64,000 nt of DNA from Minisyncoccota bacterium (lineage in GTDB: Bacteria > Patescibacteriota > Minisyncoccia > 2-02-FULL-40-12 > GWA2-44-9). The translations under genes were made by a program, and so were the position numbers. Under the pieces are notes generated by a model. It searched no databases and was not told the DNA's origin. It saw only the letters and a program-made list of their open reading frames with translations. Shown piece by piece: positions 235 through 15,057 of the stretch. Numbering within the stretch: the stretch's first letter is position 1; each line of letters opens with the position of its first letter. The DNA lies in contig JAGOSO010000005.1 in NCBI GenBank assembly GCA_018062285.1, positions 2,697-66,696 on the forward strand. The letters run 5' to 3'.

Positions 235-480
235 GTGCCAATACAAAATGGTAAAAATTGTGAGAGTTGCTTGATGCCGTTTAGTAAAGATAAGGGTCAG
301 AGAGAATCCGATAAGTATTGCAGTCTCTGCTACAAAAACGGAAAGTTGTGCTACGAAGGTAATGATGTAAAAGAATTCCAGAGAGTTTGCTACGAAAGTA
401 TGGTAAAAGGAGGCACCAACAAATTGATGGCCAAGTTTTACACCTACATGGTTAAATTCGCTCCACGTTGGAGAAAATAG
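235..480 (+). CDS. putative zinc-ribbon domain protein (81 aa)
   Basis: It has two CxxC pairs: CESC near the N-terminus and CSLC about 20 residues later (KNCESCLMPF...DKYCSLCYKNG). This is typical of small putative zinc-ribbon proteins. I prefer it to the overlapping antisense ORF 220-489. Confidence 0.5.
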   Translation: MPIQNGKNCESCLMPFSKDKGQRESDKYCSLCYKNGKLCYEGNDVKEFQRVCYESMVKGGTNKLMAKFYTYMVKFAPRWRK

Positions 481-501
481 CTTTATCAAAAGACTTAAAA
501 C

Positions 502-1314
502 ATGGGCACTGATTCAATCGTTAAGAAAGTTGGCAAACTCCCAGGTAAAACGGTTGCCGTTTTTGCTGGTGTTCACGGCAACGAAAAGGTTGGTATTTTG
601 ACATTGGATAAATTTATAAAAGAATTAGAAATAGAATCAGGAATAGCTTATTTTGTTTATGCTAATCCACCAGCCATAGAAAAAAATGTTCGAATGGTGG
701 ACAAGAATCTAAACCGCCTATTTTTTAGAGAAAACACGGGGGACACCTATGAAGATAAAAGGGCCGTTGAATTGATGGATATTCTGGACGAGTGCGAAGC
801 TCTTTTGGACTTACACTCTTATAATAGTGAATCAGGCGATCAGTTCGCCATCACTGAAGAAAACGGCTACGACTTAGTCAGCAAGATGGATTTTCCTATT
901 GTGGCCAGCGGTTTTAGTAATTTGGGCGGGGGAACTGACGGCTATATGCACAAGAAGGGGAAGATCGGTATTTGTATTGAATGCGGAACAACCAATAAAC
1001 ATGAGTCATTCCTCGGCTTGGCCGAGAATTCTATTTATCAATTTTTACAGTATTTTGGTTGCATAGAAAAAAGAGTTGAGTACTCTAATGTTTCTCAGAG
1101 ACATCTTAGGGTTAAAGAGATTATCTCTAAGAAAAATGATAATTTTAGATTTTCAAAAGAGTTTAGAACCTTTGACCTTCTCCCTGCAGGCGAGCCGTTT
1201 ATGTTTGACGGTGACGTGCAAAGAACCGCCCTTAACAACGAGTGCATATTGTTCCCACAACCAAAAACAAAAGTCGGAGACGATGCTGGTATCATCGGTG
1301 AATTCATCGACTAG
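502..1314 (+). CDS. succinylglutamate desuccinylase/aspartoacylase (AstE/AspA) family zinc hydrolase
   Basis: The N-terminal motif VAVFAGVHGNEKVG (HGNE metal-binding signature) and the 270-aa length match the AstE_AspA family. Confidence 0.65.
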   Translation: MGTDSIVKKVGKLPGKTVAVFAGVHGNEKVGILTLDKFIKELEIESGIAYFVYANPPAIEKNVRMVDKNLNRLFFRENTGDTYEDKRAVELMDILDECEALLDLHSYNSESGDQFAITEENGYDLVSKMDFPIVASGFSNLGGGTDGYMHKKGKIGICIECGTTNKHESFLGLAENSIYQFLQYFGCIEKRVEYSNVSQRHLRVKEIISKKNDNFRFSKEFRTFDLLPAGEPFMFDGDVQRTALNNECILFPQPKTKVGDDAGIIGEFID

Positions 1315-1376
1315 TAGTGCGTAACCACTTGACTAGTTATTTTTTAAAAGTATAGTTATGTTATTGGTTTTAATGT

Positions 1377-2021
1377 TTGGGGTGTAACCAAACTAAGCAC
1401 CTGACGATGTTGCAGGAATTAATCGCAGCAGTCATCCTTGGTGTTATTGGCGGTGTTATACCCGGCCCAGTTTTGGCGGCAACTTTTACAGAGATAATTC
1501 AGTCTGGCTTCATGGGGAGTTGGCGAATTATTTGGTGGGCAACCATAGCCGAAACCTCTGTCGCATTAATAAACTTAATTCTCCTCTCATCCCTTGGCTT
1601 ATCCAAGGCTTTTTTCTACTCATTTTCATTTGTTGGCGCAATTGTTCTGCTTTGGATTGCCAAGCGGTTGTGGGCAATCGCAACTTTAGACATTGAACAC
1701 AAAATACATTTCGGGGGCTGGCAGATTGCAGCCATGATTTTTACGAATGGGGCTCTTTGGATGTTTTGGATAACTGTGTGTATACCAAAAGCCATTGCCC
1801 TTGGCCAACAAGTTCCTGGGGGTCAATATTTGTTTATTACTTTTTATGAAATTGCTTGGGTTGGAACCACTGTTGCTATTGCTTATGTGTTCCATTGTTT
1901 CCGTCACTTACTTTCTCACCCAAAAACAGTACCCATTATTTTTAAAATATTTACCTTAATTTTTGTTTATTTCGCTATAAATATGATTTATTCTGGAGTC
2001 TCCTTCTTCTTGAGTAGGTAA
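1377..2021 (+). CDS. polytopic membrane protein, LysE/RhtB-like exporter family (tentative)
   Basis: About 6 predicted TM segments. An N-terminal GVIGGVIPGPV (PGP) motif is characteristic of LysE-type translocators. The start could be the internal ATG at 1407. Confidence 0.4.
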   Translation: MGCNQTKHLTMLQELIAAVILGVIGGVIPGPVLAATFTEIIQSGFMGSWRIIWWATIAETSVALINLILLSSLGLSKAFFYSFSFVGAIVLLWIAKRLWAIATLDIEHKIHFGGWQIAAMIFTNGALWMFWITVCIPKAIALGQQVPGGQYLFITFYEIAWVGTTVAIAYVFHCFRHLLSHPKTVPIIFKIFTLIFVYFAINMIYSGVSFFLSR

Positions 2022-2115
2022 TATTATCATTCTTGACGAATTAAAAAAGTGATGTTAATCTCAGGCCAGTTTTTATAGCGAGACGAACCTTTAAAACTCG
2101 CAGAAGGGTAGAGTC

Positions 2116-3114
2116 ATGACCAAGGAGATAGTTTTGTCAGGCATCCGTGCGACGGCACGATTGCACTTCGGTAATTTCTTGGGGGCAGTGAGGAATTTCG
2201 TGGATTTCCAGTCGCAGGGCTATCAGGGTCTGTATTTCATCGCCGATCTTCACACTCTCACAACCCTGAAGGATCCGGAAGAGCTCCGTCGGAATCTCAT
2301 CGAGATCACCAAGGATTACCTCGCAGCTGGACTCGATCCGAACAAGTCGATCATCTACGCTCAGTCGAGTGTTCCGGAAATTTCGGAACTCAGTCTTCTT
2401 CTGAGTATGCTCCAGCCGATGAACGAACTTGAGGGCATCGCAACTCTCAAGGATCTTGTCCGCAACTCCAAGGAGAAGGTTAACCTCGGTATGCTCACGT
2501 ATCCTGTTTTGATGGCGGCTGATATCCTTGGTCCCCAGGCGACACTTGTGCCTGTCGGGGAAGATCAGGAGCCGAACGTCGAGCTGGCACGTGAGCTTGC
2601 TCGACGGTTCAACAACCGGTTTGGTCAAACGTTTGTGGTGCCGGAGATGATGAAAGACATGGTTATGGTTCCAGGCCTCGATGGCCGGAAGATGAGCAAG
2701 TCTGATTCCGACAACACAATCGACATCAATTACACGCGAGATGAAATTTCGAAGCGATATCATGCGCGAGGCGTCACTGATACTCAGAGGTTGAGGGTCT
2801 CCGATCCTGGAGATCCTTACAATCGTTGTCGCTCGGTTTATCCTGTGCACGAAATTGTGACACCATTTGAACGGGAAAAGAGAACCATTGCCAATCTTTG
2901 CCTTGGGGGCAATATCGGGTGCAGGACCTGTAAAGGGATTCTTGTTGACAGTATCGCTGCTGTTCTTGAACCGTTTCAGGCGGCTCGGGCTGATCTGGCT
3001 AGCAAGGATGCGATGGTCCGAGAAATTCTTCATGAGGGTGGTATCAGGGCTCGGGCAATCATTCGGCCCACGCTTGAAGCTGTTCAAGACAAGATGGGTG
3101 TTGTCGTGTACTAA
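2116..3114 (+). CDS. trpS: tryptophan--tRNA ligase (class I aaRS) with C-terminal Cys4 (Fe-S-type) motif
   Basis: HIGH-region LHFGNFLGA and KMSKS (RKMSKSD) are present. Length is 332 aa. The C-terminus has C-x23-C-x6-C-x2-C (NRCRSV...NLCLGGNIGCRTCKG). The SD sequence GAAGGG lies upstream. GC is about 52%. Confidence 0.9.
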   Translation: MTKEIVLSGIRATARLHFGNFLGAVRNFVDFQSQGYQGLYFIADLHTLTTLKDPEELRRNLIEITKDYLAAGLDPNKSIIYAQSSVPEISELSLLLSMLQPMNELEGIATLKDLVRNSKEKVNLGMLTYPVLMAADILGPQATLVPVGEDQEPNVELARELARRFNNRFGQTFVVPEMMKDMVMVPGLDGRKMSKSDSDNTIDINYTRDEISKRYHARGVTDTQRLRVSDPGDPYNRCRSVYPVHEIVTPFEREKRTIANLCLGGNIGCRTCKGILVDSIAAVLEPFQAARADLASKDAMVREILHEGGIRARAIIRPTLEAVQDKMGVVVY

Positions 3115-3136
3115 TTTCGACGAAACAAAAAACAAA

Positions 3137-3165
3137 GGGGCGACCATCTGGTCGCCCCTCTTTTA
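3137..3165 (+). terminator. rho-independent terminator after trpS
   Basis: Hairpin GGGGCGACC-ATCT-GGTCGCCCC followed by TCTTTT. Confidence 0.7.
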
Positions 3166-3167
3166 AT

Positions 3168-3198
3168 AAAAAAATGCCCTCCCGTTGGTAAGGGAGGG
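3168..3198 (-). terminator. terminator hairpin downstream of tRNA-Trp (minus strand)
   Basis: CCCTCCC-GTTGGTAA-GGGAGGG stem-loop. On the minus strand it is followed by CATTTTTTT. Confidence 0.5.
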
Positions 3199-3199
3199 T

Positions 3200-3274
3200 T
3201 GGCGGGCACTGGGAGAGTCGAACTCCCGTATGCGGTTTTGGAGACCGCTGTCCTAGCCACTGAACGAAGTGCCC
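3200..3274 (-). tRNA. trnW: tRNA-Trp (anticodon CCA), CCA end encoded
   Basis: The minus-strand sequence GGGCACT-TC-GTTC-AGTGGCTA-GGAC-A-GCGGT-CTCCAAA-ACCGC-ATAC-GGGAG-TTCGACT-CTCCC-AGTGCCC-G-CCA folds as a cloverleaf. It has a 7-bp acceptor stem, U8, a GG-containing D-loop, a TTCGACT T-loop, and an anticodon loop CU-CCA-AA. Confidence 0.85.
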
Positions 3275-3319
3275 GCACGAAGGTGCAGTGACAGCATTTT
3301 AGCTCAGAGCCTTATAAAA

Positions 3320-3364
3320 GTCAATTTTTAAATAAAACGGGCGGGACCAGAAGGTCCCGCCCGG
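3320..3364 (-). terminator. terminator after the GCS2-like gene (minus strand)
   Basis: CGGGCGGGACC-AGAA-GGTCCCGCCCG hairpin at 3338-3363. On the minus strand it is followed by TTTTATTTAAAAATT. Confidence 0.5.
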
Positions 3365-3368
3365 GGGT

Positions 3369-4130
3369 TTAAAGCAGCGCGTCTTTGCAGATCTGGTGAC
3401 ACCGAATGGCCCAGGCGAGAATTTCAGTCACGTCTGGCGTTGCGCCAAACATTCTGAATTCAATTGTGCCGTGAGTCGAAATGCGGATGATGTGCCAGCA
3501 GTTCCGTGGTTTCTTCCAGAACCCGTTCTTGTTGGCGTACTTCTCGAAATCGCCCCAGTTCTTGTAGGTGGGTGGCTGGAAATTCGGCGCCATGATCTTG
3601 TAGATCTTGAGGCGTTCGCCGTTGGATTTGTCGCCGGCTGCGCACAGTTCGGGGATGTGTTTGATGGCCGCGTTGTAGGCGCGAATGGCCTGTCTTGGCG
3701 AGCCCATACCGACGTGGACATGTGTGCCAGCGACCCGGCAAGCTGCCCGGATCTTTTCCACTGTCATATCCTTCGTGATTTTCTGGTATCGACCAGTTGG
3801 ATCGGGATAGATGTCGAGTGGCATGTCGAACGGAGCCACTTCTTGGTGGAGCACCTCGAAGCCAAGGCGCACCCGGTCTTTTTCCAACATGTTCCTTAGA
3901 TCGATGAGGGCATCACCGATCATCTGGACTGGATGGGGTTTGGTCCGAGTCTCCAGCTGGCAGGCTGAGAGTTCATATCCGTACAAGCCATTGTTGGGCA
4001 GTTCGGGAATGAACTTCGGAGCGAGTGGGGAGATGATTCCATCTTTGACGAAGAAGCATTCTCTTTCAACGCCAAGATGCAGATGTCTGTCTTTGTTGAA
4101 CTCAAACTTTCTGCGAAAGGCTGCTGACAT
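3369..4130 (-). CDS. carboxylate-amine ligase, glutamate-cysteine ligase family 2 (GCS2/YbdK-like), short form
   Basis: The N-terminal HLHLGVEREC (E-x-E), the central GTHVHVGMG, and the C-terminal GTIEFRMFGATPD all match GCS2/YbdK signature motifs. SD AGGAG lies 7 nt upstream of the ATG. GC is about 53%. Confidence 0.55.
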   Translation of the reverse strand: MSAAFRRKFEFNKDRHLHLGVERECFFVKDGIISPLAPKFIPELPNNGLYGYELSACQLETRTKPHPVQMIGDALIDLRNMLEKDRVRLGFEVLHQEVAPFDMPLDIYPDPTGRYQKITKDMTVEKIRAACRVAGTHVHVGMGSPRQAIRAYNAAIKHIPELCAAGDKSNGERLKIYKIMAPNFQPPTYKNWGDFEKYANKNGFWKKPRNCWHIIRISTHGTIEFRMFGATPDVTEILAWAIRCHQICKDALL

Positions 4131-4321
4131 GGGAGCTCCTGTCCTAATTGCTTGTTAAGTTGCTTGTCTTACTGGCCCCAAACTTAACATATTTTGATTT
4201 TTTTTGTCAACCAATATCAGGTTTTTTATTCGAGATTAATTATTATAATTTGTCAAATTCATAATAAAAGAGTAAAGTTGAGCCTAAGGTCATTTGTTGG
4301 TCCCACCGCAGCTATAAAATA

Positions 4322-4981
4322 ATGGAATACCCAATCAGAATTAATAAATATGTTAGAGAGCTAGGATTGGCTTCACGACGTGAGGCCGATCTTCTTGTTG
4401 AGGAAGGTAAGGTTTTTATCAATGGCAAAAAAGCAGAGGCAGGGACAATGGTCCAAGAAAGCGACAAAGTCGTGGTAAAAGGTGAACAAAAAAAGTTTGA
4501 ATATTTGGCTTACTATAAACCTCGTGGGTTAGCCACCCAGGACTTAAAAGGCAAAAAGAGCGTCATTACTCTTTGGGAAGAAAGAGGGCTTTATCCTATC
4601 GGAAGATTAGATAAAGAATCTGAAGGGCTTTTGCTTTTAACCAATGATGGCCGTTTTGCTCGTGAAGTTTTATCAAAAGACACTAAATACGAAAAAGAAT
4701 ACGTGGTTGAGGTAAAAGAAAATATTCGAGCCGGTATTCCTGACATTTTTGCATCAGGCATGAAGACAGAAGGTCTAGGTAAGTTGTTGCCAGCCAAAGC
4801 CAAGATTATAAACCCAAATACTCTATCCGTGATTTTGATTGAAGGTAAGCGCCATCAAATCAGAGTCATGCTCAGTGAACTCAAATACACAATCACTTCG
4901 CTCAAGCGAATTAGAATCGGTGATATTAAACTCGGCAGTTTGAGGGCTAGTCAGACTCGGGCAATTACGCCCAAGATCTAG
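4322..4981 (+). CDS. rRNA pseudouridine synthase, RsuA/RluB family (S4 domain + catalytic domain)
   Basis: N-terminal S4 RNA-binding region (IRINKYVRELGLASRREADLLVEEGKVFINGK) and the catalytic motif PIGRLDKESEGLLLLTNDG. Length 219 aa. Confidence 0.8.
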   Translation: MEYPIRINKYVRELGLASRREADLLVEEGKVFINGKKAEAGTMVQESDKVVVKGEQKKFEYLAYYKPRGLATQDLKGKKSVITLWEERGLYPIGRLDKESEGLLLLTNDGRFAREVLSKDTKYEKEYVVEVKENIRAGIPDIFASGMKTEGLGKLLPAKAKIINPNTLSVILIEGKRHQIRVMLSELKYTITSLKRIRIGDIKLGSLRASQTRAITPKI

Positions 4982-5667
4982 TTGTAGCTAGGAGAATCTT
5001 TGTAGACAAACTTCTTGAACCGCGACCAGGCGGTTTTTGGTTTTTTGATTACCTGGATGACTTTGCCGTTTACTAAGTAGTTGTCTAAGTCATCGCGGTG
5101 AATAAAAATTGGAGCAAAGCTAGCACTGGATTCAGAAAGGAGGATAATGCGCTGGTTGTCACTGTCTTTGAAATAGCGTTTGATGTTAGCCATGCCATCA
5201 ATGATAGACAAGACATAATCACCGTTGTGGACACTACTAAAAGTTGGATCGACTAAAACATAATCACCATCCTCAACATTTTCACCGTTGATGTTGGCCT
5301 TGTTCATGGAATGGCCCGAAGCTTTGATGGCGAATATACCTTTTTTCTTGCTTAGGAGTTTTCCCGAGACACGGAGATAACCTTGAGCTTCTTGATCGGC
5401 GTATGCAGTGGCTGGTCCGCAGTTGGCAGTACCAAGGATGGGGATAGCCAATAGGGAATTGCGCTGTAACGCGCCAGGTCTCGTTTTAACCATGACTTTG
5501 GCCAAGCGATCCATTTGGATGAGACCGTTCTTTTCCAGCTGGAGAAGATGATGTTTAATTTTTTGGGGTGATGTTTCATTGATTAGTTTGCCTATTTCCC
5601 TAAGACTCATGTTGGCTAGATCGTTTTCTCCTGCCAGCGCTAATAATTTTTCTTGTAGATCGTGCAT
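4978..5667 (-). CDS. lexA: LexA-family transcriptional repressor (S24 peptidase) with a short C-terminal extension
   Basis: N-terminal wHTH. Ser nucleophile in ASGHSM. Lys in MANIKRY. There are about 20 extra Lys-rich C-terminal residues. It overlaps the rsuA stop by 4 nt. Confidence 0.8.
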   Translation of the reverse strand: MHDLQEKLLALAGENDLANMSLREIGKLINETSPQKIKHHLLQLEKNGLIQMDRLAKVMVKTRPGALQRNSLLAIPILGTANCGPATAYADQEAQGYLRVSGKLLSKKKGIFAIKASGHSMNKANINGENVEDGDYVLVDPTFSSVHNGDYVLSIIDGMANIKRYFKDSDNQRIILLSESSASFAPIFIHRDDLDNYLVNGKVIQVIKKPKTAWSRFKKFVYKDSPSYN

Positions 5668-5838: not shown

Positions 5839-6867
5839 ATGGACAACACAGAACAACAATCGTTGATGAAAAAGTTCTTGACCCCAGAGGTCAAGGAGAA
5901 GCTGAAGGATGTCGTTTCTCCTTCTGGTTTAGTTTTGGCTGACCTGACTCGCTCTGGTGATGAGAACCCAGACAGCAGTGTCGGTGTCTATTCAGCCGAC
6001 GAGGAGTCCTACTCTTTGTTCGCGCCGTTGTTCGACCCTGTGATCAATGAATACCATGGTCATGGAACGGAAGATCAACACAAGAGAGATCTTGATATTG
6101 CACATCTCGGTGAGATTGGCGATCTTGACCCAACCGGGGAATCGATCGTTTCAACTCGTATCCGTGTCGGGCGCAATCTCAAGGGTTTCCCATTCGCTCC
6201 GGGGATTACCCGTGAACAGCGTTTGGAAGTTGAACGTCGCGTTGTCGATGCTCTTTCGACTCTCACCGGCGATTTGGCGGGTACCTACTATCCGCTCGCT
6301 GGCATGTCCGAAGAAGTTCGTCAAAAGCTACAGGATGATCATTTCTTGTTCAAGCAAGGAGATCGGTTCCTTGCAAGTGCTGGCGCCAATCGTGATTGGC
6401 CAGAAGGTCGTGGAATTTTTCATTCCGCCGACAAGCGTTTCTTGGTCTGGGTGAACGAAGAAGACCAGCTCCGCATCATTTCGATGCAACAGGGTGGCAA
6501 CATCCGTGAGGTCTTCGCTCGTCTCGCCACAGCAATCGAGACTCTCGAGAAGAAGCTCGAGTTCGCTTACTCTGATCACCTCGGGTATCTTTCGAGTTGT
6601 CCGACCAACCTTGGCACTGCCATGCGCGCTAGCGTGCATGTGAAGTTGCCACTCTTGAGTCAGGCGCCTGATTTCAAGGCCATCTGCGCCGAGATCGGTT
6701 TGTCGGTTCGAGGTGTGGATGGAGAACACTCTGAAAGCAAGGGTGGTGTCTATGACATCTCCAACAAGCGTCGTCTTGGCATCTCTGAAGTTCAGGGTGT
6801 GCTGAATGTCGCTAGTGGTGTCTCCAGCTTGATCGAAGACGAAAAAGAACTCGCTTCAAAGCAGTAA
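5839..6867 (+). CDS. ATP:guanido phosphotransferase, eukaryote-type arginine kinase (phosphagen kinase)
   Basis: Active-site CPTNLGT followed by MRASVHVKLP. Also SRIRVGRNLKGFPF, GTYYPLAGMSEEVRQKLQDDHFLFKQGDRFL, and GRGIFHSADKRFLVWVNEEDQLRIISMQQGG. All closely track metazoan/protist arginine kinase blocks rather than McsB. SD GAGGAG. GC is about 55%. Confidence 0.85.
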   Translation: MDNTEQQSLMKKFLTPEVKEKLKDVVSPSGLVLADLTRSGDENPDSSVGVYSADEESYSLFAPLFDPVINEYHGHGTEDQHKRDLDIAHLGEIGDLDPTGESIVSTRIRVGRNLKGFPFAPGITREQRLEVERRVVDALSTLTGDLAGTYYPLAGMSEEVRQKLQDDHFLFKQGDRFLASAGANRDWPEGRGIFHSADKRFLVWVNEEDQLRIISMQQGGNIREVFARLATAIETLEKKLEFAYSDHLGYLSSCPTNLGTAMRASVHVKLPLLSQAPDFKAICAEIGLSVRGVDGEHSESKGGVYDISNKRRLGISEVQGVLNVASGVSSLIEDEKELASKQ

Positions 6868-6884
6868 AAGCCTCAGGGTTTTTT

Positions 6885-6915
6885 GGCCGGGCCTCAGTGC
6901 CCGGCCATTTTAATT
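6885..6915 (+). terminator. terminator after arginine kinase
   Basis: GGCCGGG-CCTCAGTG-CCCGGCC followed by ATTTTAATTT. Confidence 0.5.
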
Positions 6916-6966
6916 TGTTTGACTAGTAGCGTTAAAACGTGTTATTGTATTTTTAAGGAGAATCGA

Positions 6967-7419
6967 ATGAACGAAGTCGAAGAAGGGGATGTGACTGTTG
7001 TTGAAACAAAGGATTGGTTCGGGATGTTGGCGGTAAGTAACATCCTAAAGGTCGCTGATCGTCTCGCAAAGATGCTTGAGGGTCGGAAGTACACCTTCGT
7101 GTCTTTCAATGAATTCAGCCAAGAGCCACCGAAGTTCTTGCGAGGTCAGAGTCTGACACCTGAAACTGCGCCCAATGGACAAGCCGTCCGTGCCGCCATT
7201 GGAGAAGGTCTGTACAACGGTGCTCGTTTGATTGTCTGTGATTCTGCTGGTGGTTGGCAAGTGCCAACCAACATGATGAATGAACTTCAACGTCACGACA
7301 GAAAGGACTCGAAGTTCAACTTTGTTGGAGGCAGGACTTTCGTCGTGTCTTATAAGGCCGGTGCCGGCAACATGTTGATCTGGATGGTCTCCGTCGAACC
7401 CGACGAATTTGAACAGTGA
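6967..7419 (+). CDS. hypothetical protein (150 aa), GC-rich, co-located with arginine kinase
   Basis: Strong SD AAGGAG lies 7 nt upstream of the ATG at 6967. The ORF-track start at 6883 is a longer alternative. No motif recognised. Confidence 0.5.
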   Translation: MNEVEEGDVTVVETKDWFGMLAVSNILKVADRLAKMLEGRKYTFVSFNEFSQEPPKFLRGQSLTPETAPNGQAVRAAIGEGLYNGARLIVCDSAGGWQVPTNMMNELQRHDRKDSKFNFVGGRTFVVSYKAGAGNMLIWMVSVEPDEFEQ

Positions 7420-7440
7420 GCCCGCGACGAGAAAGGCCAA

Positions 7441-7467
7441 GGCCCGCCTCATCCGCGGGCCTTTTTT
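7441..7467 (+). terminator. rho-independent terminator
   Basis: GGCCCGC-CTCATCC-GCGGGCC-TTTTTT. A second hairpin, CAGACC-CGCTTGT-GGTCTG-TTTTGTTTTT, follows at about 7473-7500. Confidence 0.7.
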
Positions 7468-7522
7468 AATTCCAGACCCGCTTGTGGTCTGTTTTGTTTT
7501 TATTTATGATAGATTCACGATT

Positions 7523-8113
7523 ATGAACGATTTACCAAAGGAACAATATAAAGAATTTGCAGAGGAGTATTCAAAGACGATTGAAATCCCAGAAGAAAAA
7601 GGGAAGCAGTTTTTGCTTTGTCCTGTTGGGATAGTTGGAGCCGGCAAAACCACTGTTGTTAAGCCTTTAGCTGAAAAGTTTGGCTTAGTAAGAATCTCAA
7701 GCGATGAAATGAGAAAAATGTTGAAAGAAAAAGGCTTTAGTTACAAAGGAGTTCAAGAAATGGCTTTAATCGTTGTAAGAGACTTTATTATCAAAGGATA
7801 TGGTGTGGCAATTGACGCAGATTGCTCTAAGCCTGAGAGGAGAAAGGAGATCGAAAATTTTTCTGCCAAAACTTCAATTCCGCTTATCTGGATTCACATA
7901 AATCCACCAGAAGAGTTTATTTTAAACAAACTTAGAAACTATAAACATACTTGGTTATTTAAAGATGCCGATGAAGCAATTGGGAATTATGAATTTCGCA
8001 AACCATTACATCAAAATTTAGATTTTAATTTTACTTATACATTTGATACCTCTAAATCAAATCTCTCTGACCAAATCGAGGAAGCCTACCAGATTATTAA
8101 ATCAGCAATATAA
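7523..8113 (+). CDS. P-loop NTPase, AAA_33/zeta-toxin-like small kinase family
   Basis: Walker A GIVGAGKTT. About 196 aa from the ATG at 7523. The ORF-track start at 7409 overlaps the terminator, so I prefer the internal Met. Confidence 0.5.
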   Translation: MNDLPKEQYKEFAEEYSKTIEIPEEKGKQFLLCPVGIVGAGKTTVVKPLAEKFGLVRISSDEMRKMLKEKGFSYKGVQEMALIVVRDFIIKGYGVAIDADCSKPERRKEIENFSAKTSIPLIWIHINPPEEFILNKLRNYKHTWLFKDADEAIGNYEFRKPLHQNLDFNFTYTFDTSKSNLSDQIEEAYQIIKSAI

Positions 8114-8727
8114 TGTGGGCCACTTGTTATCCTAATCATTGTTTTTGCGAAAGTCTGCACGTGGGGGCGGTGTTCCAGCCGGCGAATACGATTTCTTCGC
8201 TGGCTTTTGTTTTGGCGGGGATTTTTGTGGCGTATAAGTATCGAAACTCATGGGGCTATATTTATGCCGTGCTTTTGGGATTGATTGGGCTTGGTTCGGC
8301 CTACTATCACGCCCGATTAGATTTTGTTGGCCAAACTATTGATGTGGCGGGGATGTATTTCTTGGTGACCTTTGTTTTGTTGGCGGTTTTAAAACAAACT
8401 CGAAAATATTTTCTCGGTTATTTTTTGGCCGGGAATGCCGTTTTAATTTCAATTCTGGTTTCAGTGCCGGTTTTGCGCCGATACATTTTTACGGGATTGG
8501 TTTTGGCTTTGATTATTACGCTTTGGAAACAAAACCTTTTCAATAAATATTTCTGGGCTAGTCTTGCGACTCTCGTCATTGCGTTTATAATCTGGAGTTT
8601 GGATATCACGGGCGTTTGGTGTAATCCCAACAGTATCTTGCAAGGGCACGCCATTTGGCACATCCTAGGAGCAATCTCAGCGGTGTTCTTGTTTGAATCA
8701 ATTAGACCAGTGTTGAATAAAAATTAA
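8113..8727 (+). CDS. ceramidase-like integral membrane hydrolase (alkaline ceramidase/CREST superfamily)
   Basis: 7 predicted TM segments. Motifs NTISSLAF, YYHARLD and GHAIWHILGA match ceramidase-family conserved Ser/His/His positions. The start overlaps the upstream stop (TAATG). Confidence 0.5.
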   Translation: MWATCYPNHCFCESLHVGAVFQPANTISSLAFVLAGIFVAYKYRNSWGYIYAVLLGLIGLGSAYYHARLDFVGQTIDVAGMYFLVTFVLLAVLKQTRKYFLGYFLAGNAVLISILVSVPVLRRYIFTGLVLALIITLWKQNLFNKYFWASLATLVIAFIIWSLDITGVWCNPNSILQGHAIWHILGAISAVFLFESIRPVLNKN

Positions 8728-9236
8728 TGGCTTCATATACTTCACTAAAAGTTCAGTTGAGAGAAAGCGAGATGGCCGGTAAGGGCCTTTTTGCGATTGA
8801 GAAAATAAACAAAGATGAGATTGTTGCCGATTACACAAATGGCTTTGGGGAATATGTTGATTTAAAAAGAGCTAACGAGATTTATGATAGTGGTTTGGAT
8901 CACATGATTCAGATTGATGACGATTTGTATTTCGCCGCCACCAATGGCAGTGAGTCAGAAGATTCAGATCATATAAATCATTCTTGTAATTCTAATTGCG
9001 GGATCAAGAGCCCGCTGGGGGTTGTGGCAATGAGAGATATCGAACCAGGCGAAGAAATAACAGTTGATTATGCGATGATTGATTCGTCTGACTATGGCTT
9101 TGATTGTAAGTGTGGGTCCCCAGATTGTCGCGGCAGGGTTACTGGCGATGATTGGAAGATCCCAGAATTGCAAAATAGATATAAAGGATATTTTTCAGAT
9201 TACCTACAAAAGAAGATAGACTTATTAAATAAATGA
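8727..9236 (+). CDS. SET-domain protein (lysine methyltransferase fold) with post-SET Cys cluster
   Basis: NHSCNSNCG (NHSC motif), a GEEITVDY region, and post-SET CKCGSPDCRG. Confidence 0.8.
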   Translation: MASYTSLKVQLRESEMAGKGLFAIEKINKDEIVADYTNGFGEYVDLKRANEIYDSGLDHMIQIDDDLYFAATNGSESEDSDHINHSCNSNCGIKSPLGVVAMRDIEPGEEITVDYAMIDSSDYGFDCKCGSPDCRGRVTGDDWKIPELQNRYKGYFSDYLQKKIDLLNK

Positions 9237-10312
9237 CCATCCTAGATATTCCGCAGATGCGGTTAAAAAATCAGGGGATTAGTGATAGGAGATTTAAGAC
9301 CGTGAAAGAGGTTGTTTCTTGGATGGGGGCGATGCAGGCGCAGGACTATAACGCTTCGTTGTGGGCGATTGGGTTACGCATGGCGGGGAATCCTAAGGTG
9401 GCAGATATAGAAAAGGCAATCAGTAAAGGAGAAATAATTCGGTTGTGGCCGATGCGGGGGACGATTCATTTTGTGGCGGCGGAAGATGCACGCTGGATGC
9501 ATTCTCTTTTAACGCCCCGTTTAAATAATACCTATAACGACAGAAGCGACAGATTGGGAATCACTCCAGAGATTATTAAACAATCCAAAGATCTATTCAC
9601 CAAAGCCTTGAAAGGCAACAAGCACTTAACTCGGGAAGCGCTTTATCAAATTTTAGAAAAAGCCGGCATCAAAACCGCCAACAGTATTGGTTTACATATT
9701 ACATATCGTTTGGCCCACGAAGGTTTAATTGTTTGTGGTCCTCGTGAAGGCAAACAACAAACCCTTGCTTTGTTTGATGAATGGGTGCCCAAAGGAAAAG
9801 AATTTTCTCGTGAAGAAGCCATCAAAGAATTAACTCTGCGGTATTTTACCAGTCATGGCCCTGCTCAAATCAAAGATCTCAACTGGTGGTCTGGTTTACC
9901 AATCAAAGATATTAAACGTGGGATTGAGTTGAATGGAAAGAAATTAACCAAAGAAACAATCGAAGGGAAGGATTATTATTTTTCAGCTTTAGAAATTAGA
10001 CCAATTAGGTCAATTAGAAATTCTCAGTCGGCTTTCTTGTTACCGGCTTTTGATGAATACATAGTGGCTTATCGTGACCGTGACGCAGTCCTTGAATCCG
10101 TACACAAGGAAAAGATAAACCCCGGTGGCAACGGCATGCTTCAGCCCGTGGTGGTTATAAACGGCCAAGTCCTCGGCAACTGGAAAAAAGTAATAAAGAA
10201 GAGTACGGTTGAGGTGGTTACGGTCCCGTTTGTGAGTTTTGGGACAGATGGTAACGTTTCAATCAAGATTGCCAGTGAGCAGTATAATTTTTTTAACAAA
10301 TTGACTAGTTAA
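9233..10312 (+). CDS. winged-helix DNA glycosylase, AlkZ/YcaQ family (HTH_42)
   Basis: N-terminal block LKNQGISDRRF...VVSWMGAMQAQDY carries the Q-x-Q catalytic motif of AlkZ-like crosslink-repair glycosylases. 359 aa. ATGA overlap with the SET gene. Confidence 0.65.
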   Translation: MTILDIPQMRLKNQGISDRRFKTVKEVVSWMGAMQAQDYNASLWAIGLRMAGNPKVADIEKAISKGEIIRLWPMRGTIHFVAAEDARWMHSLLTPRLNNTYNDRSDRLGITPEIIKQSKDLFTKALKGNKHLTREALYQILEKAGIKTANSIGLHITYRLAHEGLIVCGPREGKQQTLALFDEWVPKGKEFSREEAIKELTLRYFTSHGPAQIKDLNWWSGLPIKDIKRGIELNGKKLTKETIEGKDYYFSALEIRPIRSIRNSQSAFLLPAFDEYIVAYRDRDAVLESVHKEKINPGGNGMLQPVVVINGQVLGNWKKVIKKSTVEVVTVPFVSFGTDGNVSIKIASEQYNFFNKLTS

Positions 10313-10371
10313 TTTTTGTTATCACAGTATGGTGCAGATGTTCTGTTATTACTAAAATAATATTTACAAAT

Positions 10372-11421
10372 ATGGATCAAGAGCAAATAAAAAATTTCAT
10401 TGAGGAGTACGGCTCAAAAAGAGAACAATATAAGAATTTCTCAATACGTCTAAAAAATATAATTGAAGATATTCTCAACGTTAAAGGCCTTAGTTATTTG
10501 TCGGTTGAGTGTCGGGCAAAATCATCAGTTAGTCTTGAGAAAAAATTAGAAAAATTATCTTTTGAAAGTTTGGGTGAAGTTCAAGATTTGGCCGGTGTCC
10601 GAATCATAACTTACGTTTATAAGGACATCGAGACAATAGAAAGCGTTATCGCTGAAAATTTTTTAGCAGAACAATTAAGTGTTGAAGATAGGTTGGGGAC
10701 AGACAGAGTCGGCTACAGATCCCATCATTGGCTAATCTCATTACCAGATAATCGTCTAAAATTGCCAGAGTATGAACAGTTTGGTGGCCTCAAGGCAGAG
10801 CTTCAGATTAGTACGGTTCTTCAACATGCATGGGCACAAATTGGGCATAAGCAGGTCTATAAACCAAGTGCTATTTTACCGCGTAAGATTAAAAGGAATT
10901 TCACATTATTGTCCGGTTTATTAGAAATAGCAGACAATGAGTTCAATCGAATATCAAATGAGATACTAGAACATCAACAAGAAGTTGTTAGTGAGACTGA
11001 AAAAGGGAATTTAGAAATACCAATCGATACTGTCTCTTTAAGGCAGTATTTCGATACCAATTTTAAAAGCATTAATAACATGGACCCAAGATTTGGTCCT
11101 CATGATGACATGGCAGAAGATATAATTGAAGAATTGCGAGATCTTGGGATAACAACATTGGCTCAACTCGACAATATTATACCGAAAGATTTTATGCAAA
11201 ACCTAGCGAGTGTAGATATGGGAGAAAAAAATTATTGCGGTTTATCTAGGAATATTATGGTCATTTATAATTACAAAGAATATTTTGAAAAAGCATGGAA
11301 GAATAAGTGGGTATCTGCATCAAAATCAGAAAGTAGCACAGGTGAATTATATAAGATATACGGGATAGATTATGATGAAATAATAAAGACTTATGGCTTG
11401 AGGGTTTCTGTAAAGAAGTAG
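10372..11421 (+). CDS. RelA/SpoT-homolog synthetase-domain protein (small alarmone synthetase-like) with ~180-aa uncharacterised C-terminal extension
   Basis: Synthetase motifs are present: ECRAKSSVSLEKKLEK (RxKxxxSxxxK), DLAGVRII, GYRSHHW, and ELQISTVLQHAWAQIGH. There is no HD hydrolase domain. 349 aa. Confidence 0.75.
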   Translation: MDQEQIKNFIEEYGSKREQYKNFSIRLKNIIEDILNVKGLSYLSVECRAKSSVSLEKKLEKLSFESLGEVQDLAGVRIITYVYKDIETIESVIAENFLAEQLSVEDRLGTDRVGYRSHHWLISLPDNRLKLPEYEQFGGLKAELQISTVLQHAWAQIGHKQVYKPSAILPRKIKRNFTLLSGLLEIADNEFNRISNEILEHQQEVVSETEKGNLEIPIDTVSLRQYFDTNFKSINNMDPRFGPHDDMAEDIIEELRDLGITTLAQLDNIIPKDFMQNLASVDMGEKNYCGLSRNIMVIYNYKEYFEKAWKNKWVSASKSESSTGELYKIYGIDYDEIIKTYGLRVSVKK

Positions 11422-11439
11422 GATAAAAAAGTTATTTAA

Positions 11440-11470
11440 GTAGAAACGTGTCATAGCTCTCTACTTGCTT
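11440..11470 (+). terminator. possible terminator hairpin after the RSH-domain gene
   Basis: AAGTAGA...TCTACTT 7-bp stem with a 15-nt loop, followed by GCTTATTT. Weak. Confidence 0.25.
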
Positions 11471-11539
11471 ATTTAGGGATTAATATAAGTTTAAATATTC
11501 TCTATAAAAACATGACACAACAATCAAAATAATAAAAAC

Positions 11540-12085
11540 ATGTCCATAAAAATAACCTATTTTGTGCACGGGACGACGACGGATAATGAGAAGCATGTTT
11601 CTTCGGGTATGTATGATGTGGAATTGTCGGAGTTGGGGATTAAGCAATCAAAAGAATTAGCCGAGCAAACAAAAGATAAAAAGTTTGATGTTGTCTTTTG
11701 TTCGGATTTGAAACGGGCCGTTGATTCGGCTCATTTAACTTGGGAAGGCGTCTATCCTATCGTTGTTGATGCTCGATTGCGTGAATGTAACTACGGCACA
11801 TACAATGCCCAACTTTCTGAGGTAGTGGAACCAATGCAGGAGAAAATGATTACCGAACGCTTTCCAGAAGGCGAGAGCTATGAAGATGTAAAAGCCCGCA
11901 TTGCTGACTTCTTGGATTTTCTAAAAAAGAACTATGACGGCAAATCAGTTGCCATTGTCGGCCACAAAGCTCCCCAACTAGCCCTCGAAGTATTATTGAA
12001 TGGTAAAACCTGGGACCAAGCCTTTACTGAAGACTGGCGCAAAACCCATGCTTGGAAACCAGGTTGGGAATACGAGGTAAAATAA
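11540..12085 (+). CDS. histidine phosphatase family protein (phosphoglycerate-mutase-like/SixA-like)
   Basis: N-terminal ITYFVHGTTTDNE (RHG-type catalytic His motif). 181 aa. Confidence 0.7.
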   Translation: MSIKITYFVHGTTTDNEKHVSSGMYDVELSELGIKQSKELAEQTKDKKFDVVFCSDLKRAVDSAHLTWEGVYPIVVDARLRECNYGTYNAQLSEVVEPMQEKMITERFPEGESYEDVKARIADFLDFLKKNYDGKSVAIVGHKAPQLALEVLLNGKTWDQAFTEDWRKTHAWKPGWEYEVK

Positions 12086-12504
12086 TGGAAACAAAACTCT
12101 TTGTTGCGACAAAAGCGCTCATAGTAAACAAGCAGGGGAAGGTTTTGATTTTGCGTGAGTCGAATAAATATGTTGATGGAACCAATGTGGCTAAGTTTGA
12201 TTTGCCAGGTGGAAGAATGGAAGTTGGAAGGCCGTTTGATGAATGTTTGGTCCGTGAAATAAAAGAAGAAACTGGTCTGAAGGTTAAAATCGGCCAACCT
12301 TTTTATGTCGGCGAGTGGCGACCAGTTGTTCGAGGAGAACAATGGCAGATTGTGGCAATATTTTTTAAATGCAAAACAACTACAAGCAAAGTTAAGTTAA
12401 GTAAGGACCACGATGCTTTTGAATGGATTAATCCAAAAGATTACAAAAAATCTTCCTTGATTCCTAATTTGCAGAAAGCATTTAAAGTTTATTTGGAAAA
12501 ATAA
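12086..12504 (+). CDS. NUDIX hydrolase
   Basis: Nudix box GGRMEVGRPFDECLVREIKEETGL. SD GAGG lies 8 nt upstream. The ATG overlaps the upstream TAA. Confidence 0.8.
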
Positions 12505-12507
12505 ATT

Positions 12508-12900
12508 ATGAATTATTATTTGAGTTATTTAATGGGTGCAGGCAATATAACCGACGAACAGTTGGCGGGTTTGGGTGTGGAGATAGTCGAGAAGAAGAAA
12601 TTAAAAATACCGGCTGAAAAGTTGCAGGAATATATTGATTTAATAAAAACAGGTCTCAGCCCTGGTTTTTGGAATGAAGTAGTTGGATCCGAAGAAATTA
12701 TCTTTGTTTTTAAATTTAAAGACGAGACAATCAAAGAATTTGAACTATCAATCGATAACGAAGCCGAGATTGCCAAGCTTTGCAGTGAGTTTGCCAATGA
12801 ATCTCCAGACAAAACAAAAAATGTCTACAAATACATTTCTGAAAATAGTTTCTACCATGATTTTATGATTGAACACTATTCAAGTATGATTAATCGATAA
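12508..12900 (+). CDS. hypothetical protein (130 aa)
   Basis: ORF with tight spacing inside the operon. No motif recognised. Confidence 0.4.
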   Translation: MNYYLSYLMGAGNITDEQLAGLGVEIVEKKKLKIPAEKLQEYIDLIKTGLSPGFWNEVVGSEEIIFVFKFKDETIKEFELSIDNEAEIAKLCSEFANESPDKTKNVYKYISENSFYHDFMIEHYSSMINR

Positions 12901-12907
12901 TAAACAT

Positions 12908-13519
12908 ATGGCAGACCAAGCAACAGTCGATGCATACAACAATATAGCCGAGGAATACCATTCTCGAAATTCGGTGACGATGTACACCAAGGAGTATGGG
13001 ATTTTTGAGTCCATGTTTGGTTCAAGCAAGAGTGTTTTGGAAATTGGTTGTGGCACGGGCCGTGATTCAAAAGTGCTTATTGGTCTTGGTTTTGACCACG
13101 TTGGGATAGATGCTTCCGAAGGGATGTTAAAAATTGCACAGGAGCTTGTCCCAGAAGGAAAATTTAAAGTTGGTGATTTCTATAATCTTGAATTCTCAGA
13201 TAATCATTTTGACGGATTCTGGGCCGCTGCAACATTTTTGCATGTTCCTAAGGCCGACATGCCAAAGATTCTAGCTGAAGCCAGAAGAGTTATTAAACCA
13301 AACGGTGTCGGTTTTATTTCCGTGAAACAGAAAAAGGGCATGGATGAGGGTTACATTGAATCCAAAACAACCGGAACCAAGAGGTATTTTGCGTTTTACG
13401 AAAAAGAAGAATTTGCGAACATTCTTAAGGAAAATAATTTTGAGGTGGTTAAAATAAATGAGGATATTGAGCAAGACGGAACCCCCTGGTTTTATTATTT
13501 CGTAAAATCTTTAAAATAA
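12908..13519 (+). CDS. class I SAM-dependent methyltransferase
   Basis: Motif I VLEIGCGTGRD and a post-I acidic residue. 203 aa. Confidence 0.8.
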   Translation: MADQATVDAYNNIAEEYHSRNSVTMYTKEYGIFESMFGSSKSVLEIGCGTGRDSKVLIGLGFDHVGIDASEGMLKIAQELVPEGKFKVGDFYNLEFSDNHFDGFWAAATFLHVPKADMPKILAEARRVIKPNGVGFISVKQKKGMDEGYIESKTTGTKRYFAFYEKEEFANILKENNFEVVKINEDIEQDGTPWFYYFVKSLK

Positions 13520-13523
13520 ATAT

Positions 13524-13934
13524 ATGAGCGATAAAAAAGCTGTTATGTTGCCGGTTGTGGCTGGGGTGGTCATAAAAAAAGATGGCAAGTATCTTTTGGT
13601 CCAAGAAAATAAGAAAACTAATTACGGGTTATATAACTGGCCAGCAGGGAAGGTGGATGAAGGAGAAAGTATTGAAGAAACAGCTATTCGAGAAGCCAAA
13701 GAAGAAGTTGGCGTTGACGTTAAGCTTATTCGAAAGATAGATATTTTTCAGGCCAATATTTCTTTACCAGCCAGACATGCTTTTGAAGCCGAGATTACCA
13801 ACGGCGAACCCCAAGCCCAAGAAGGCCAAGTTCTATCAGTTGGCTGGTTCACCCCAGACGAAATGCGTGCCATGAAAGATAAACTTCGCAGTGAATGGGT
13901 TTTGGAGGCAATGGAAATGATGGAATCTAAATAA
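13524..13934 (+). CDS. NUDIX hydrolase
   Basis: Nudix box GKVDEGESIEETAIREAKEEVGV. Confidence 0.8.
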   Translation: MSDKKAVMLPVVAGVVIKKDGKYLLVQENKKTNYGLYNWPAGKVDEGESIEETAIREAKEEVGVDVKLIRKIDIFQANISLPARHAFEAEITNGEPQAQEGQVLSVGWFTPDEMRAMKDKLRSEWVLEAMEMMESK

Positions 13935-13935
13935 A

Positions 13936-15057
13936 ATGTCTTATTTTACAGGAATTATTTACAGAAATTTAATTAAGCCGGTGTTGTTTTTGTTTCCGGC
14001 GGATAAGATACACGATTTGTTTCTTGAGCAGGGAAGGTTTTTGGGCCGGAGCAATTGGGTGAAGGGGATTTTAAAAAAGATGTGGAGCTACAAGAGCCCA
14101 ATTCTTGAACAGAATTTGGCGGGACTTAATTTTAAGAATCCAATTGGTCTGGCAGCCGGTTTTGATTACGATGCAGATTTGGTAGAAATTTTGCCAAGCG
14201 TTGGATTTGGTTTTAATACTGTTGGGACTTTAACCCATGAACCATACGCGGGTAACCCACTACCAATGCTGGGACGTTTACCAAAATCAAAGTCGTTGCT
14301 GGTTAATAAGGGATTTAAAAACGAAAGCGTGAACAAAGTGTTGGCTAAAGTTAAACCCAATCATACGGGCGCGCCTCGTGGTGTCAGTATTGGTGCAACC
14401 AACAAGCCTTACCCTAATTTTGAGGCCATGGTGGATGATTTGATGACCGGTTTTAAAGAAGCCGACAAATTCAAAACTTTTGATTACTACGAATTGAACA
14501 TTAGTTGCCCTAATTTGTTGAACATCCAGAATTTGGAAGACCGCTTGGATTCTATAACCGGTTTAACTAAAACTTTGACCAGATTGAGCGAGCTTGGCTT
14601 GAGCCGCCCAGTGTTTATTAAAATGCCATTAGAACGAACATTCGAAGATGTAAAAAGTATTGCAGAGACCGCTGCCCCGTTCCCAGTTATCAAAGGATTA
14701 GTTTTTTCTAACCTCGCCAAAGATCGTAGTAATCCTGCTTTTGATTCAGAAGAAATTAAGAATGCCGGCGTTGGTAATTTTAGTGGTAAGCCATTGGAAG
14801 ATAAATCAAATGAATTGTTGGCCTATGCTTATCAGAACTATCGAGAAAGATTTATCTTGATTGGTGTGGGTGGCGTTTTCACCGCCGAGGATGCTTACAA
14901 GAAAATTAAAGCCGGTGCGTCTTTGGCCCAATTGATTACTGGCATTATATTTATGGGTCCCCAGCAAATTGGTGTGATTAACAAGGGTTTAGCTCGATTA
15001 CTAAAGAAAGACGGCTATACAAATATCTCTCAGGCGATAGGGAAGGCTATTCTCTAG
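13936..15057 (+). CDS. pyrD: dihydroorotate dehydrogenase (quinone), class 2
   Basis: GLNFKNPIGLAAGFDYDAD matches the class 2 DHODH N-terminal signature. FMN-binding C-terminal GVGGV. 373 aa. Confidence 0.8.
   Translation: MSYFTGIIYRNLIKPVLFLFPADKIHDLFLEQGRFLGRSNWVKGILKKMWSYKSPILEQNLAGLNFKNPIGLAAGFDYDADLVEILPSVGFGFNTVGTLTHEPYAGNPLPMLGRLPKSKSLLVNKGFKNESVNKVLAKVKPNHTGAPRGVSIGATNKPYPNFEAMVDDLMTGFKEADKFKTFDYYELNISCPNLLNIQNLEDRLDSITGLTKTLTRLSELGLSRPVFIKMPLERTFEDVKSIAETAAPFPVIKGLVFSNLAKDRSNPAFDSEEIKNAGVGNFSGKPLEDKSNELLAYAYQNYRERFILIGVGGVFTAEDAYKKIKAGASLAQLITGIIFMGPQQIGVINKGLARLLKKDGYTNISQAIGKAIL

Follow-up and report, generated by a model that had tools for sequence, protein, structure and literature searches.

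A 64,000-nucleotide stretch of the genome of a Minisyncoccota bacterium (GenBank assembly GCA_018062285.1, contig JAGOSO010000005.1, positions 2,697 to 66,696 of the forward strand; hereafter the window) carries a gene for a 349-amino-acid protein with a RelA/SpoT-type synthetase domain. We hold, with modest confidence, that this protein is probably a nucleotide pyrophosphokinase of the small alarmone synthetase (SAS) class, coupled to a sensor and acting autonomously as a single gene, and not part of a toxin-antitoxin (TA) or detoxification operon. The argument draws on a catalytic domain close to those of RelQ and RelP, on an acidic C-terminal domain shared by a patchily distributed family, and on the gene neighbourhoods of relatives in the candidate phyla radiation (CPR) and in other phyla.

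Catalytic domain, linker and C-terminal domain

The gene and the parts of its product are as follows.

10372..11421, + strand: stand-alone SAS-family gene, 349 amino acids (Pfam RelA_SpoT; AlphaFold2 full-length model with a mean predicted local distance difference test score, pLDDT, of 89)
10372..10881, + strand: catalytic synthetase domain, residues 1-170, RelQ/RelP-like fold (PDB profile search, Foldseek and residue mapping)
10882..11001, + strand: linker, one long helix, residues 171-210 (DSSP on the AlphaFold2 model)
11008..11418, + strand: C-terminal domain, family-specific, acidic and mostly alpha-helical, residues about 213-349 (AlphaFold2 model)

The protein is 100% identical to MBP9822390.1, which is annotated as hypothetical in a metagenome-assembled genome of Candidatus Pacebacteria; this places the window in the CPR (Patescibacteria). 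A first-pass annotation of this DNA had credited it with the synthetase motifs and with no HD hydrolase domain, and both points were borne out. Pfam RelA_SpoT (PF04607) spans residues 48-165 (E=1.1e-14, 55.1 bits against a cut-off of 27), the motifs R48-x-K50-xxx-S54-xxx-K58, D72-xx-G75-x-R77, G114-Y115-x-S117-x-H119 and E143-x-Q145-I-S147-T148 were read directly, and a Pfam search at E<=0.01 for HD, TGS and ACT domains found none. The protein is a synthetase-only member of the RelA/SpoT homologue (RSH) superfamily and falls in its SAS class, as it has the synthetase domain and lacks hydrolase and regulatory domains. The annotation had also allowed for the sole housekeeping Rel of the genome with a degenerate TGS/ACT C-terminus. 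This was ruled out, because HD, TGS and ACT domains are lacking, the long-RSH model TIGR00691 reaches only 18.8 bits where 499 are required, and the fold of the C-terminal part has no relation to TGS or ACT.

The nearest characterized structures are those of Firmicutes RelQ and RelP (YjbM/YwaC). A search of PDB sequences with the family profile placed RelQ-type 3l9d (E=2e-25) and 2be3 (about 1e-25) far ahead of CapRel (7ztb, 2.5e-6), and Foldseek ranked 5dec and 6fgk at the top, with a TM-score of about 0.8 on the target. In Staphylococcus aureus RelP, the ligands of AMPCPP-Mg are R78, K80, S84, K88, D107, R112, E174 and H190 (PMC5794853), and by alignment all of them have counterparts in the window protein (R48, K50, S54, K58, D72, R77, E143 and H159). 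The G-loop tyrosine, Y115, is invariant in 42 of 42 family sequences. The catalytic domain is not basic, with an isoelectric point (pI) of 5.9 in the window protein against a median of 7.0 for the family, bulk charge being a crude measure. The window protein and RelQ/RelP thus have a common catalytic fold, every ATP/Mg residue and the lack of a hydrolase domain, whereas RelQ and RelP are single-domain proteins of about 210 residues and the window protein has, in addition, a linker helix of 40 residues and an acidic domain of 135. It also lies outside the RelQ/YjbM equivalog (NCBIfam NF053588, 53.4 bits against a cut-off of 320), and while RelQ/RelP is a core Firmicutes gene, the window family is patchy and often found on mobile elements.

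One catalytic position departs from the family. Codon 147 (window 10810-10812) is AGT and encodes Ser where the ExQIRT motif has Arg. Of 42 aligned family members, 41 keep that Arg and the window copy is the sole Ser; CPR-clade sequences have 20 Arg, 2 Cys and 1 Ser. With Ser in place of a conserved Arg, the window enzyme may bind its acceptor differently or be less active, and the change could be genuine functional drift or an error in the consensus of the metagenome assembly. We regard it as very unlikely that the window copy is a pseudo-enzyme, catalytically impaired or in decay. The deviation from so conserved a residue, by a single third-position base, would fit such decay, yet an assembly consensus error is possible, the reading frame is full-length, and the ATP/Mg ligands, Y115 and the near-invariant C-terminal residues are all intact. 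Moreover, the equivalent of Arg147 is not among the ATP ligands of S. aureus RelP (PMC5794853).

The AlphaFold2 full-length model, for which a 42-sequence alignment was used, consists of the synthetase domain, the long helix of residues 171-210 and a helical C-terminal domain. The linker is the best-conserved segment in the CPR clade, with 63% mean pairwise identity (CPR alignment A4). The C-terminal domain, modelled alone, reached a pLDDT of 92.9 and a predicted template modelling score (pTM) of 0.88. It is acidic (pI 4.9 and net charge -5, with family medians of 4.9 and -6), and its near-invariant residues are E254, L255, R293, Y304, F305 and W313; mean pairwise identity across the family is 30% for this domain and 43% for the catalytic domain. 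Some members (among them P0059, P0072 and P0085; alignment A1, columns about 480-600) carry long hyper-acidic, proline-rich tails of the type EPPDYEPPE..., with charge down to -69, which heighten the acidic character of the C-terminal domain in those members.

The first-pass annotation had called the last 180 or so residues uncharacterised and had proposed a profile search of them, and the description holds. The C-terminal domain matched no Pfam family in 37 members scanned, nothing among PDB sequences in a profile search, no PDB fold by Foldseek (best E=1.7, with neither 7ztb nor 9erv recovered) and nothing in the viral library BFVD (Foldseek). A helix-hairpin-helix nucleic-acid-binding function was considered from an 'ELxxxGIxTLxxLD' motif and not adopted; Pfam Cdd1 matched 1 of the 37 members at E=0.02, and the domain is acidic.

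Spread of the family and comparison with known systems

A profile of the C-terminal domain was searched against 1.84 billion representative proteins, and about 700 proteins or clusters at 50% identity carry the domain. The matches are either proteins of about 340-370 residues in which the domain occupies about residues 200-350, or fragments of such proteins that lack N-terminal sequence. Nine of ten odd-length matches examined contain RelA_SpoT, and among the non-fragment matches examined the domain was found on no other effector; RelA_SpoT is missing from P0197 (445 residues) alone, which has no Pfam match of any kind. The fusion to RelA_SpoT in the matches examined indicates that the C-terminal domain is specific to this SAS subfamily. 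In P0121 (463 residues) and P0122 (507 residues), it occurs as a tandem duplicate behind a single synthetase domain. The subfamily is sizeable and apparently uncharacterized, the comparison with FpRel, FpRel2, GRel and divRel having been made by names and taxa alone.

The members are spread patchily over CPR phyla, Bacteroidota, Bacillota, Actinomycetota, Pseudomonadota, Acidobacteriota, Chloroflexota, Fusobacteriota and Campylobacterota, as well as Nano-, Bathy- and Methanosarcinales archaea. Several occurrences are on mobile elements. In the Vibrio cholerae superintegron, the family gene is a single cassette amid DUF3709, DUF645, ParE/Phd and GNAT cassettes, and in a Bacteroides prophage-plasmid a divergent member (hhalign E=7e-53 over residues 2-278) stands by itself on the opposite strand, as a moron, between terminase and HNH genes. 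The 8-kb Vibrio inovirus PQ189320.1 (L111 6571-7581) carries a 336-residue relative as an accessory gene (hhalign E=5e-40, residues 9-306). Further, the sole cargo of the 3.5-kb ColE1-type Klebsiella plasmid pZZW20-3.5K (L110 436-1572) is a 378-residue relative that has the synthetase and linker in common with the family (hhalign E=2e-46, residues 7-210) and a different C-terminal domain of about 170 residues, which suggests, at the level of sequence, a wider superfamily with swappable C-terminal domains. In P0182 (557 residues), a phage-integrase domain stands N-terminal to a full family member; this fusion may be a gene-calling artefact or a sign of carriage on an integrative element.

These occurrences bear on the proposal that the protein is a CapRel-type fused TA or abortive-infection protein, which would pyrophosphorylate the CCA end of tRNA, be restrained by its C-terminal antitoxin and be released by a phage protein. 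CapRel(SJ46), a phage capsid sensor, is likewise a single chain of about 350-370 residues with an N-terminal RSH synthetase and a non-catalytic C-terminus, stand-alone on mobile elements, and the window protein matches it in size and layout (349 against 373 residues, with an extra domain behind the synthetase). The weak profile match to 7ztb, a partial PADLOC match to the single-gene defence candidate PDC-S33 and the relatives found as integron cassette, prophage moron, inovirus cargo and sole ColE1-plasmid cargo (the last with another C-terminal domain) are also consistent with this proposal. Nevertheless, we consider it unlikely. The catalytic domain is distant from that of CapRel(SJ46) and far nearer RelQ/RelP, and by bulk charge it is neutral to acidic, which speaks, if crudely, against a basic tRNA-binding surface. 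Foldseek to 7ztb aligned the synthetase part alone, the two C-terminal domains have no detectable similarity, the pseudo-zinc-finger of CapRel(SJ46) is not seen in the window protein, and the C-terminal domain is conserved across phyla and not hypervariable. In addition, the CPR copies lie amid ribosomal, chaperone, ribonucleotide reductase and gyrase genes, and PADLOC matches among the flanking genes of the family are few and sporadic.

The PDC-S33 profile itself, which has 349 positions, matched 42 of 42 family members weakly (best E=1.9e-23). In the five proteins with a reported stretch, the match is confined to profile positions 41-236, which take in the synthetase and linker but leave out the C-terminal third, and the window protein (E=4e-18) does not match over the full length. 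Bicistronic toxic SAS (toxSAS) enzymes, namely FaRel, FaRel2, PhRel, PhRel2 and CapRel with a separate antitoxin, are likewise synthetase-only RSH proteins outside the long-RSH class. They are defined, however, by a conserved adjacent and often overlapping antitoxin gene (PMC7229694), whereas here the flanks vary across 87 loci and the next gene is 118 bp off. The first-pass suggestion of a toxSAS-like or defence-related system is possible for the family as a single gene, but not with the partners that it named.

In layout and acidity, the resemblance to GRel/Pag1B, the effector of PANGU type I, is striking. According to a 2026 bioRxiv preprint, Pag1B consists of a synthetase domain that a helical linker joins to an acidic, 'DNA-mimicking' C-terminal domain, its catalytic domain is non-basic, its product is pppGpp, and it is activated by an adjacent nucleoid-associated protein (10.64898/2026.04.06.716658). 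On a reading modelled on it, the acidic domain of the window protein would be a DNA mimic bound by a nucleoid-associated protein that is freed on genome damage and so triggers pppGpp synthesis, with the gene for the nucleoid-associated protein located elsewhere in the genome. The layout is the same, with an acidic C-terminal domain on a helical linker, and some family members have hyper-acidic tails. The catalytic domain is non-basic in both, and by analogy the window protein would make an alarmone and not a modified tRNA. If the G-loop offset (Y115 against Y129 in Pag1B) carries through, R293 would fall within one residue of R306, the Pag1A-contacting residue of Pag1B. Yet PANGU type I is a two-gene operon, and its defining nucleoid-associated-protein neighbour is absent from the window and from about 100 related loci, no recurrent neighbour having been found at 80-87 loci; the comparison, moreover, was made by published description. 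We know of no relevant nucleoid-associated protein in CPR genomes. The reading therefore appears quite improbable to us.

Gene neighbourhoods in the window and in relatives

Downstream of the synthetase gene, the window contains the following.

11422..11539, unstranded: AT-rich spacer of 118 bp, synthetase to phosphatase (sequence read)
11540..12085, + strand: histidine phosphatase, branch 1, 181 amino acids (Pfam His_Phos_1, E=1e-30)
12085..12504, + strand: NUDIX hydrolase 1, 139 amino acids from ATG 12085 (Pfam NUDIX, E=4e-16)
12508..12900, + strand: 130-amino-acid protein, function not assigned (no family)
12908..13519, + strand: class-I S-adenosylmethionine-dependent methyltransferase, 203 amino acids (Pfam Methyltransf_25 and Methyltransf_11, E=6e-21)
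13524..13934, + strand: NUDIX hydrolase 2, 136 amino acids (Pfam NUDIX, E=3e-20)
13936..15057, + strand: pyrD, quinone-dependent dihydroorotate dehydrogenase (TIGR01036, 232.6 bits against a cut-off of 200)

All six open reading frames (ORFs) that had been annotated from the synthetase to NUDIX 2 were found on the + strand at the same coordinates, and Pfam upheld the calls of a histidine phosphatase, two NUDIX hydrolases, a methyltransferase and a 130-residue protein without a family. The start of NUDIX 1 is most likely ATG 12085, which overlaps the phosphatase stop by 1 nt, and not TTG 12052. The genes had been described as a tight operon immediately behind the synthetase. The tightness stands, with gaps of -1 to 7 nt inside the downstream string, but the string is set off from the synthetase by the 118-bp spacer and does not end at NUDIX 2; only 1 nt separates the latter from pyrD, so that the string extends past 13934 into housekeeping pyrimidine synthesis. 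Indeed, + strand genes are packed co-directionally over window 7.4-18.4 kb in one dense run. The spacer contains a weak 7-bp inverted repeat (11438-11444 / 11460-11466), and no terminator- or promoter-like site was called when such sites were sought in it.

The downstream proteins are generic members of their families. The histidine phosphatase is under every NCBIfam cut-off (top CobC, 82.6 bits against 162.9), as is the methyltransferase, and the 130-residue protein matched nothing in Pfam, NCBIfam or PADLOC. NUDIX 1 is a generic MutT-like protein (top NCBIfam NudG, 37.8 bits against a cut-off of 156; PDB top 3grn) and NUDIX 2 a generic MutT/NudG-like one (NudG 51.5 bits against 156; PDB top 3ees and 2rrk). 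The PDB proteins nearest to both are generic MutT-like (E 1e-9 to 5e-11), and neither reaches an equivalog-level NCBIfam match to a characterized alarmone-hydrolysing NUDIX (NudG/MutT, NahA, Ndx8). No small alarmone hydrolase (SAH), a partner type raised in the first-pass annotation, is present, as no HD domain was found among the genes scanned between 7409 and 18448.

Conservation of the neighbourhood was examined at 87 loci in a first round and in 110 sources overall including the window, about 100 of the other 109 holding a family member. Searches with the window's neighbour proteins (phmmer and an iterated hidden Markov model) recovered neither a histidine phosphatase homologue nor one of the 130-residue protein at the other 109 loci. 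All-against-all clustering of the ORFs within 4 kb at the 87 loci yielded no recurrent neighbour family, and a Pfam scan of the 142 ORFs that directly flank the gene at 80 loci gave 184 families with <=4 occurrences each. A hidden partner of the PANGU kind, about 300 residues long, was also sought without success, and the ten flanking ORFs of about 320-355 residues that were examined were all unrelated proteins. The synthetase and the phosphatase/NUDIX string are thus not co-conserved in relatives, and the histidine phosphatase is outside the synthetase system. With no recurrent neighbour and with occurrences as lone cargo, the gene works without a dedicated partner; it is autonomous.

Within the CPR, homologues of 45-56% identity give 13 independent contexts. 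A metagenome scan with the single window protein returned no loci, and one with the CPR alignment returned 7. The neighbours in these contexts include rpsI with grpE-dnaK-dnaJ, frr with rseP, ribonucleotide reductase (twice), gyrA, ddl, tgt-queA, umuD-dinB and a DpnII restriction-modification system, and the CPR gene looks vertically retained amid housekeeping genes and not placed in a defence island. On the reading that we favour, the gene travels as single-gene cargo outside the CPR and is kept amid housekeeping genes within it. Ribonucleotide reductase lies immediately upstream of the synthetase in L107 and L108. At the closest long-contig homologue, L001, the region upstream (380-5222) holds the DpnII restriction-modification genes, a 923-residue protein with a faint SMC_N match and a 131-residue protein without a Pfam match, which may be a defence cluster. 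A Peptidase_S51 gene stands directly downstream of the synthetase, with a gap of 10-20 bp, in two CPR loci (L108 5267-5893 and L109 4760-5383).

The remaining proposal, and the one made by the first-pass annotation, is that the synthetase works together with the downstream phosphatase and NUDIX enzymes as a self-contained synthesis-degradation module, in which the hydrolases would clear an alarmone or toxic nucleotide in a genome without a SpoT/Rel hydrolase. Some NUDIX enzymes (NahA, Ndx8 and NudG/MutT) do hydrolyse (p)ppGpp. A NUDIX gene lies 0.6-5.8 kb downstream of the synthetase on the same strand in 5 of the 13 CPR contexts (window, L001, L005, L096 and L098) and upstream in 0 of 13, and there is no NUDIX in the remaining about 60 kb of the window. 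The three closest long-contig CPR loci (window, L001 and L096) have downstream arrays of small phosphohydrolases, whose members are NUDIX, HAD, Exo_endo_phos and, in L096, a YedJ/YpgQ-type HD protein. The L096 array also contains a Peptidase_S51 gene (9978-10610), and behind the L096 synthetase is a 130-residue gene with no homology to the window's 130-residue protein.

Against such a module, the NUDIX proteins at different loci are not orthologous (22-38% identity, mainly over the NUDIX box), a NUDIX is the adjacent gene at no locus outside the window, NUDIX is lacking from 8 of the 13 CPR contexts, and it is present at only 4 of about 80 non-CPR loci. With the window left out as the ascertainment case, the NUDIX enrichment is borderline (about p=0.05-0.1, with a conservative background). 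The HD protein of L096 is of the YedJ/YpgQ type and not an SAH, and the absence of phosphatase and 130-residue homologues elsewhere, the spacer and the run into pyrD point the same way. A dedicated module consequently seems to us an improbable account. Along with the NUDIX genes, pyrD, pyrF and ribonucleotide reductase are recurrent near the CPR gene, which suggests a loose thematic tie to nucleotide house-cleaning and metabolism genes and no module. The phosphatase-NUDIX-unknown-methyltransferase-NUDIX string is best read as a separate, pyrD-linked nucleotide house-cleaning or metabolism set with no dedicated antitoxin or detoxifier role.

Elsewhere in the window, the gene run at 5839-9236, just upstream of an AlkZ-like glycosylase, is unusual for bacteria. 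It includes a phosphagen kinase of the two-domain arginine/creatine-kinase type (5839-6864), a ceramidase-family membrane protein (8113-8727) and a SET-domain protein (8727-9236); a SET-domain gene is also found near the homologue in L091. A GC-rich block at 2116-3274 (52%, against about 40% for the window) contains a class-I Trp/Tyr-type tRNA synthetase gene and, adjoining it on the minus strand, a tRNA-Trp (3200-3274), the only tRNA of the window. Its composition suggests that the block was acquired horizontally. The long antisense ORF at 2137-3147 belongs to no family and is probably not a real gene.

Proposed mechanism and implications

In the mechanism that we propose for the autonomous synthetase, the N-terminal domain binds ATP-Mg just as RelP and RelQ do, as its conserved residues show, and would most likely pyrophosphorylate a purine nucleotide at its 3'-OH, giving (p)ppGpp or a related alarmone. 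A nucleotide is favoured over tRNA as the acceptor because the protein is closer to RelQ/RelP and its catalytic domain is non-basic. The single long helix would couple the synthetase to the acidic helical C-terminal domain, which, by analogy with CapRel and GRel/Pag1B, would most likely keep the enzyme off until a conserved cellular ligand or protein binds. The predicted output is a slow-down of growth or translation.

Several considerations weigh against this interpretation. The regulatory role of the C-terminal domain is drawn from analogy, the window copy with its Ser147 may have altered or reduced activity, and our literature search found no biochemical data for any family member. Further, the recurrence of NUDIX genes downstream and never upstream of the CPR gene makes some functional link to nucleotide hydrolases possible.

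A broader proposal goes further. The family may comprise widespread one-protein alarmone switches whose structurally new acidic domain would sense a conserved cue, such as a signal from the ribosome or from nucleotides, or a DNA-binding protein that genome damage displaces. In the CPR the gene product could be the main or only alarmone synthetase, with turnover by promiscuous downstream NUDIX and other phosphohydrolases; this would amount to a stringent-response circuit that has no Rel/SpoT hydrolase. We offer this tentatively and think it rather unlikely in its full extent.

For the interpretation of gene order, the fact that genes adjoin in the dense, co-directional genomes of the CPR says little for an operon-level module, and the inference fails here when it is held against relatives. 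If the family acts as proposed, it would be a third sensor-coupled RSH architecture, beside CapRel and GRel/Pag1B, with a sensor-type C-terminal domain for which no structural precedent was found in the PDB or BFVD. To our knowledge, alarmone synthesis in CPR bacteria is essentially unstudied. The proposed activity, if true, would show a route by which these ultra-small, host-dependent bacteria make an alarmone.

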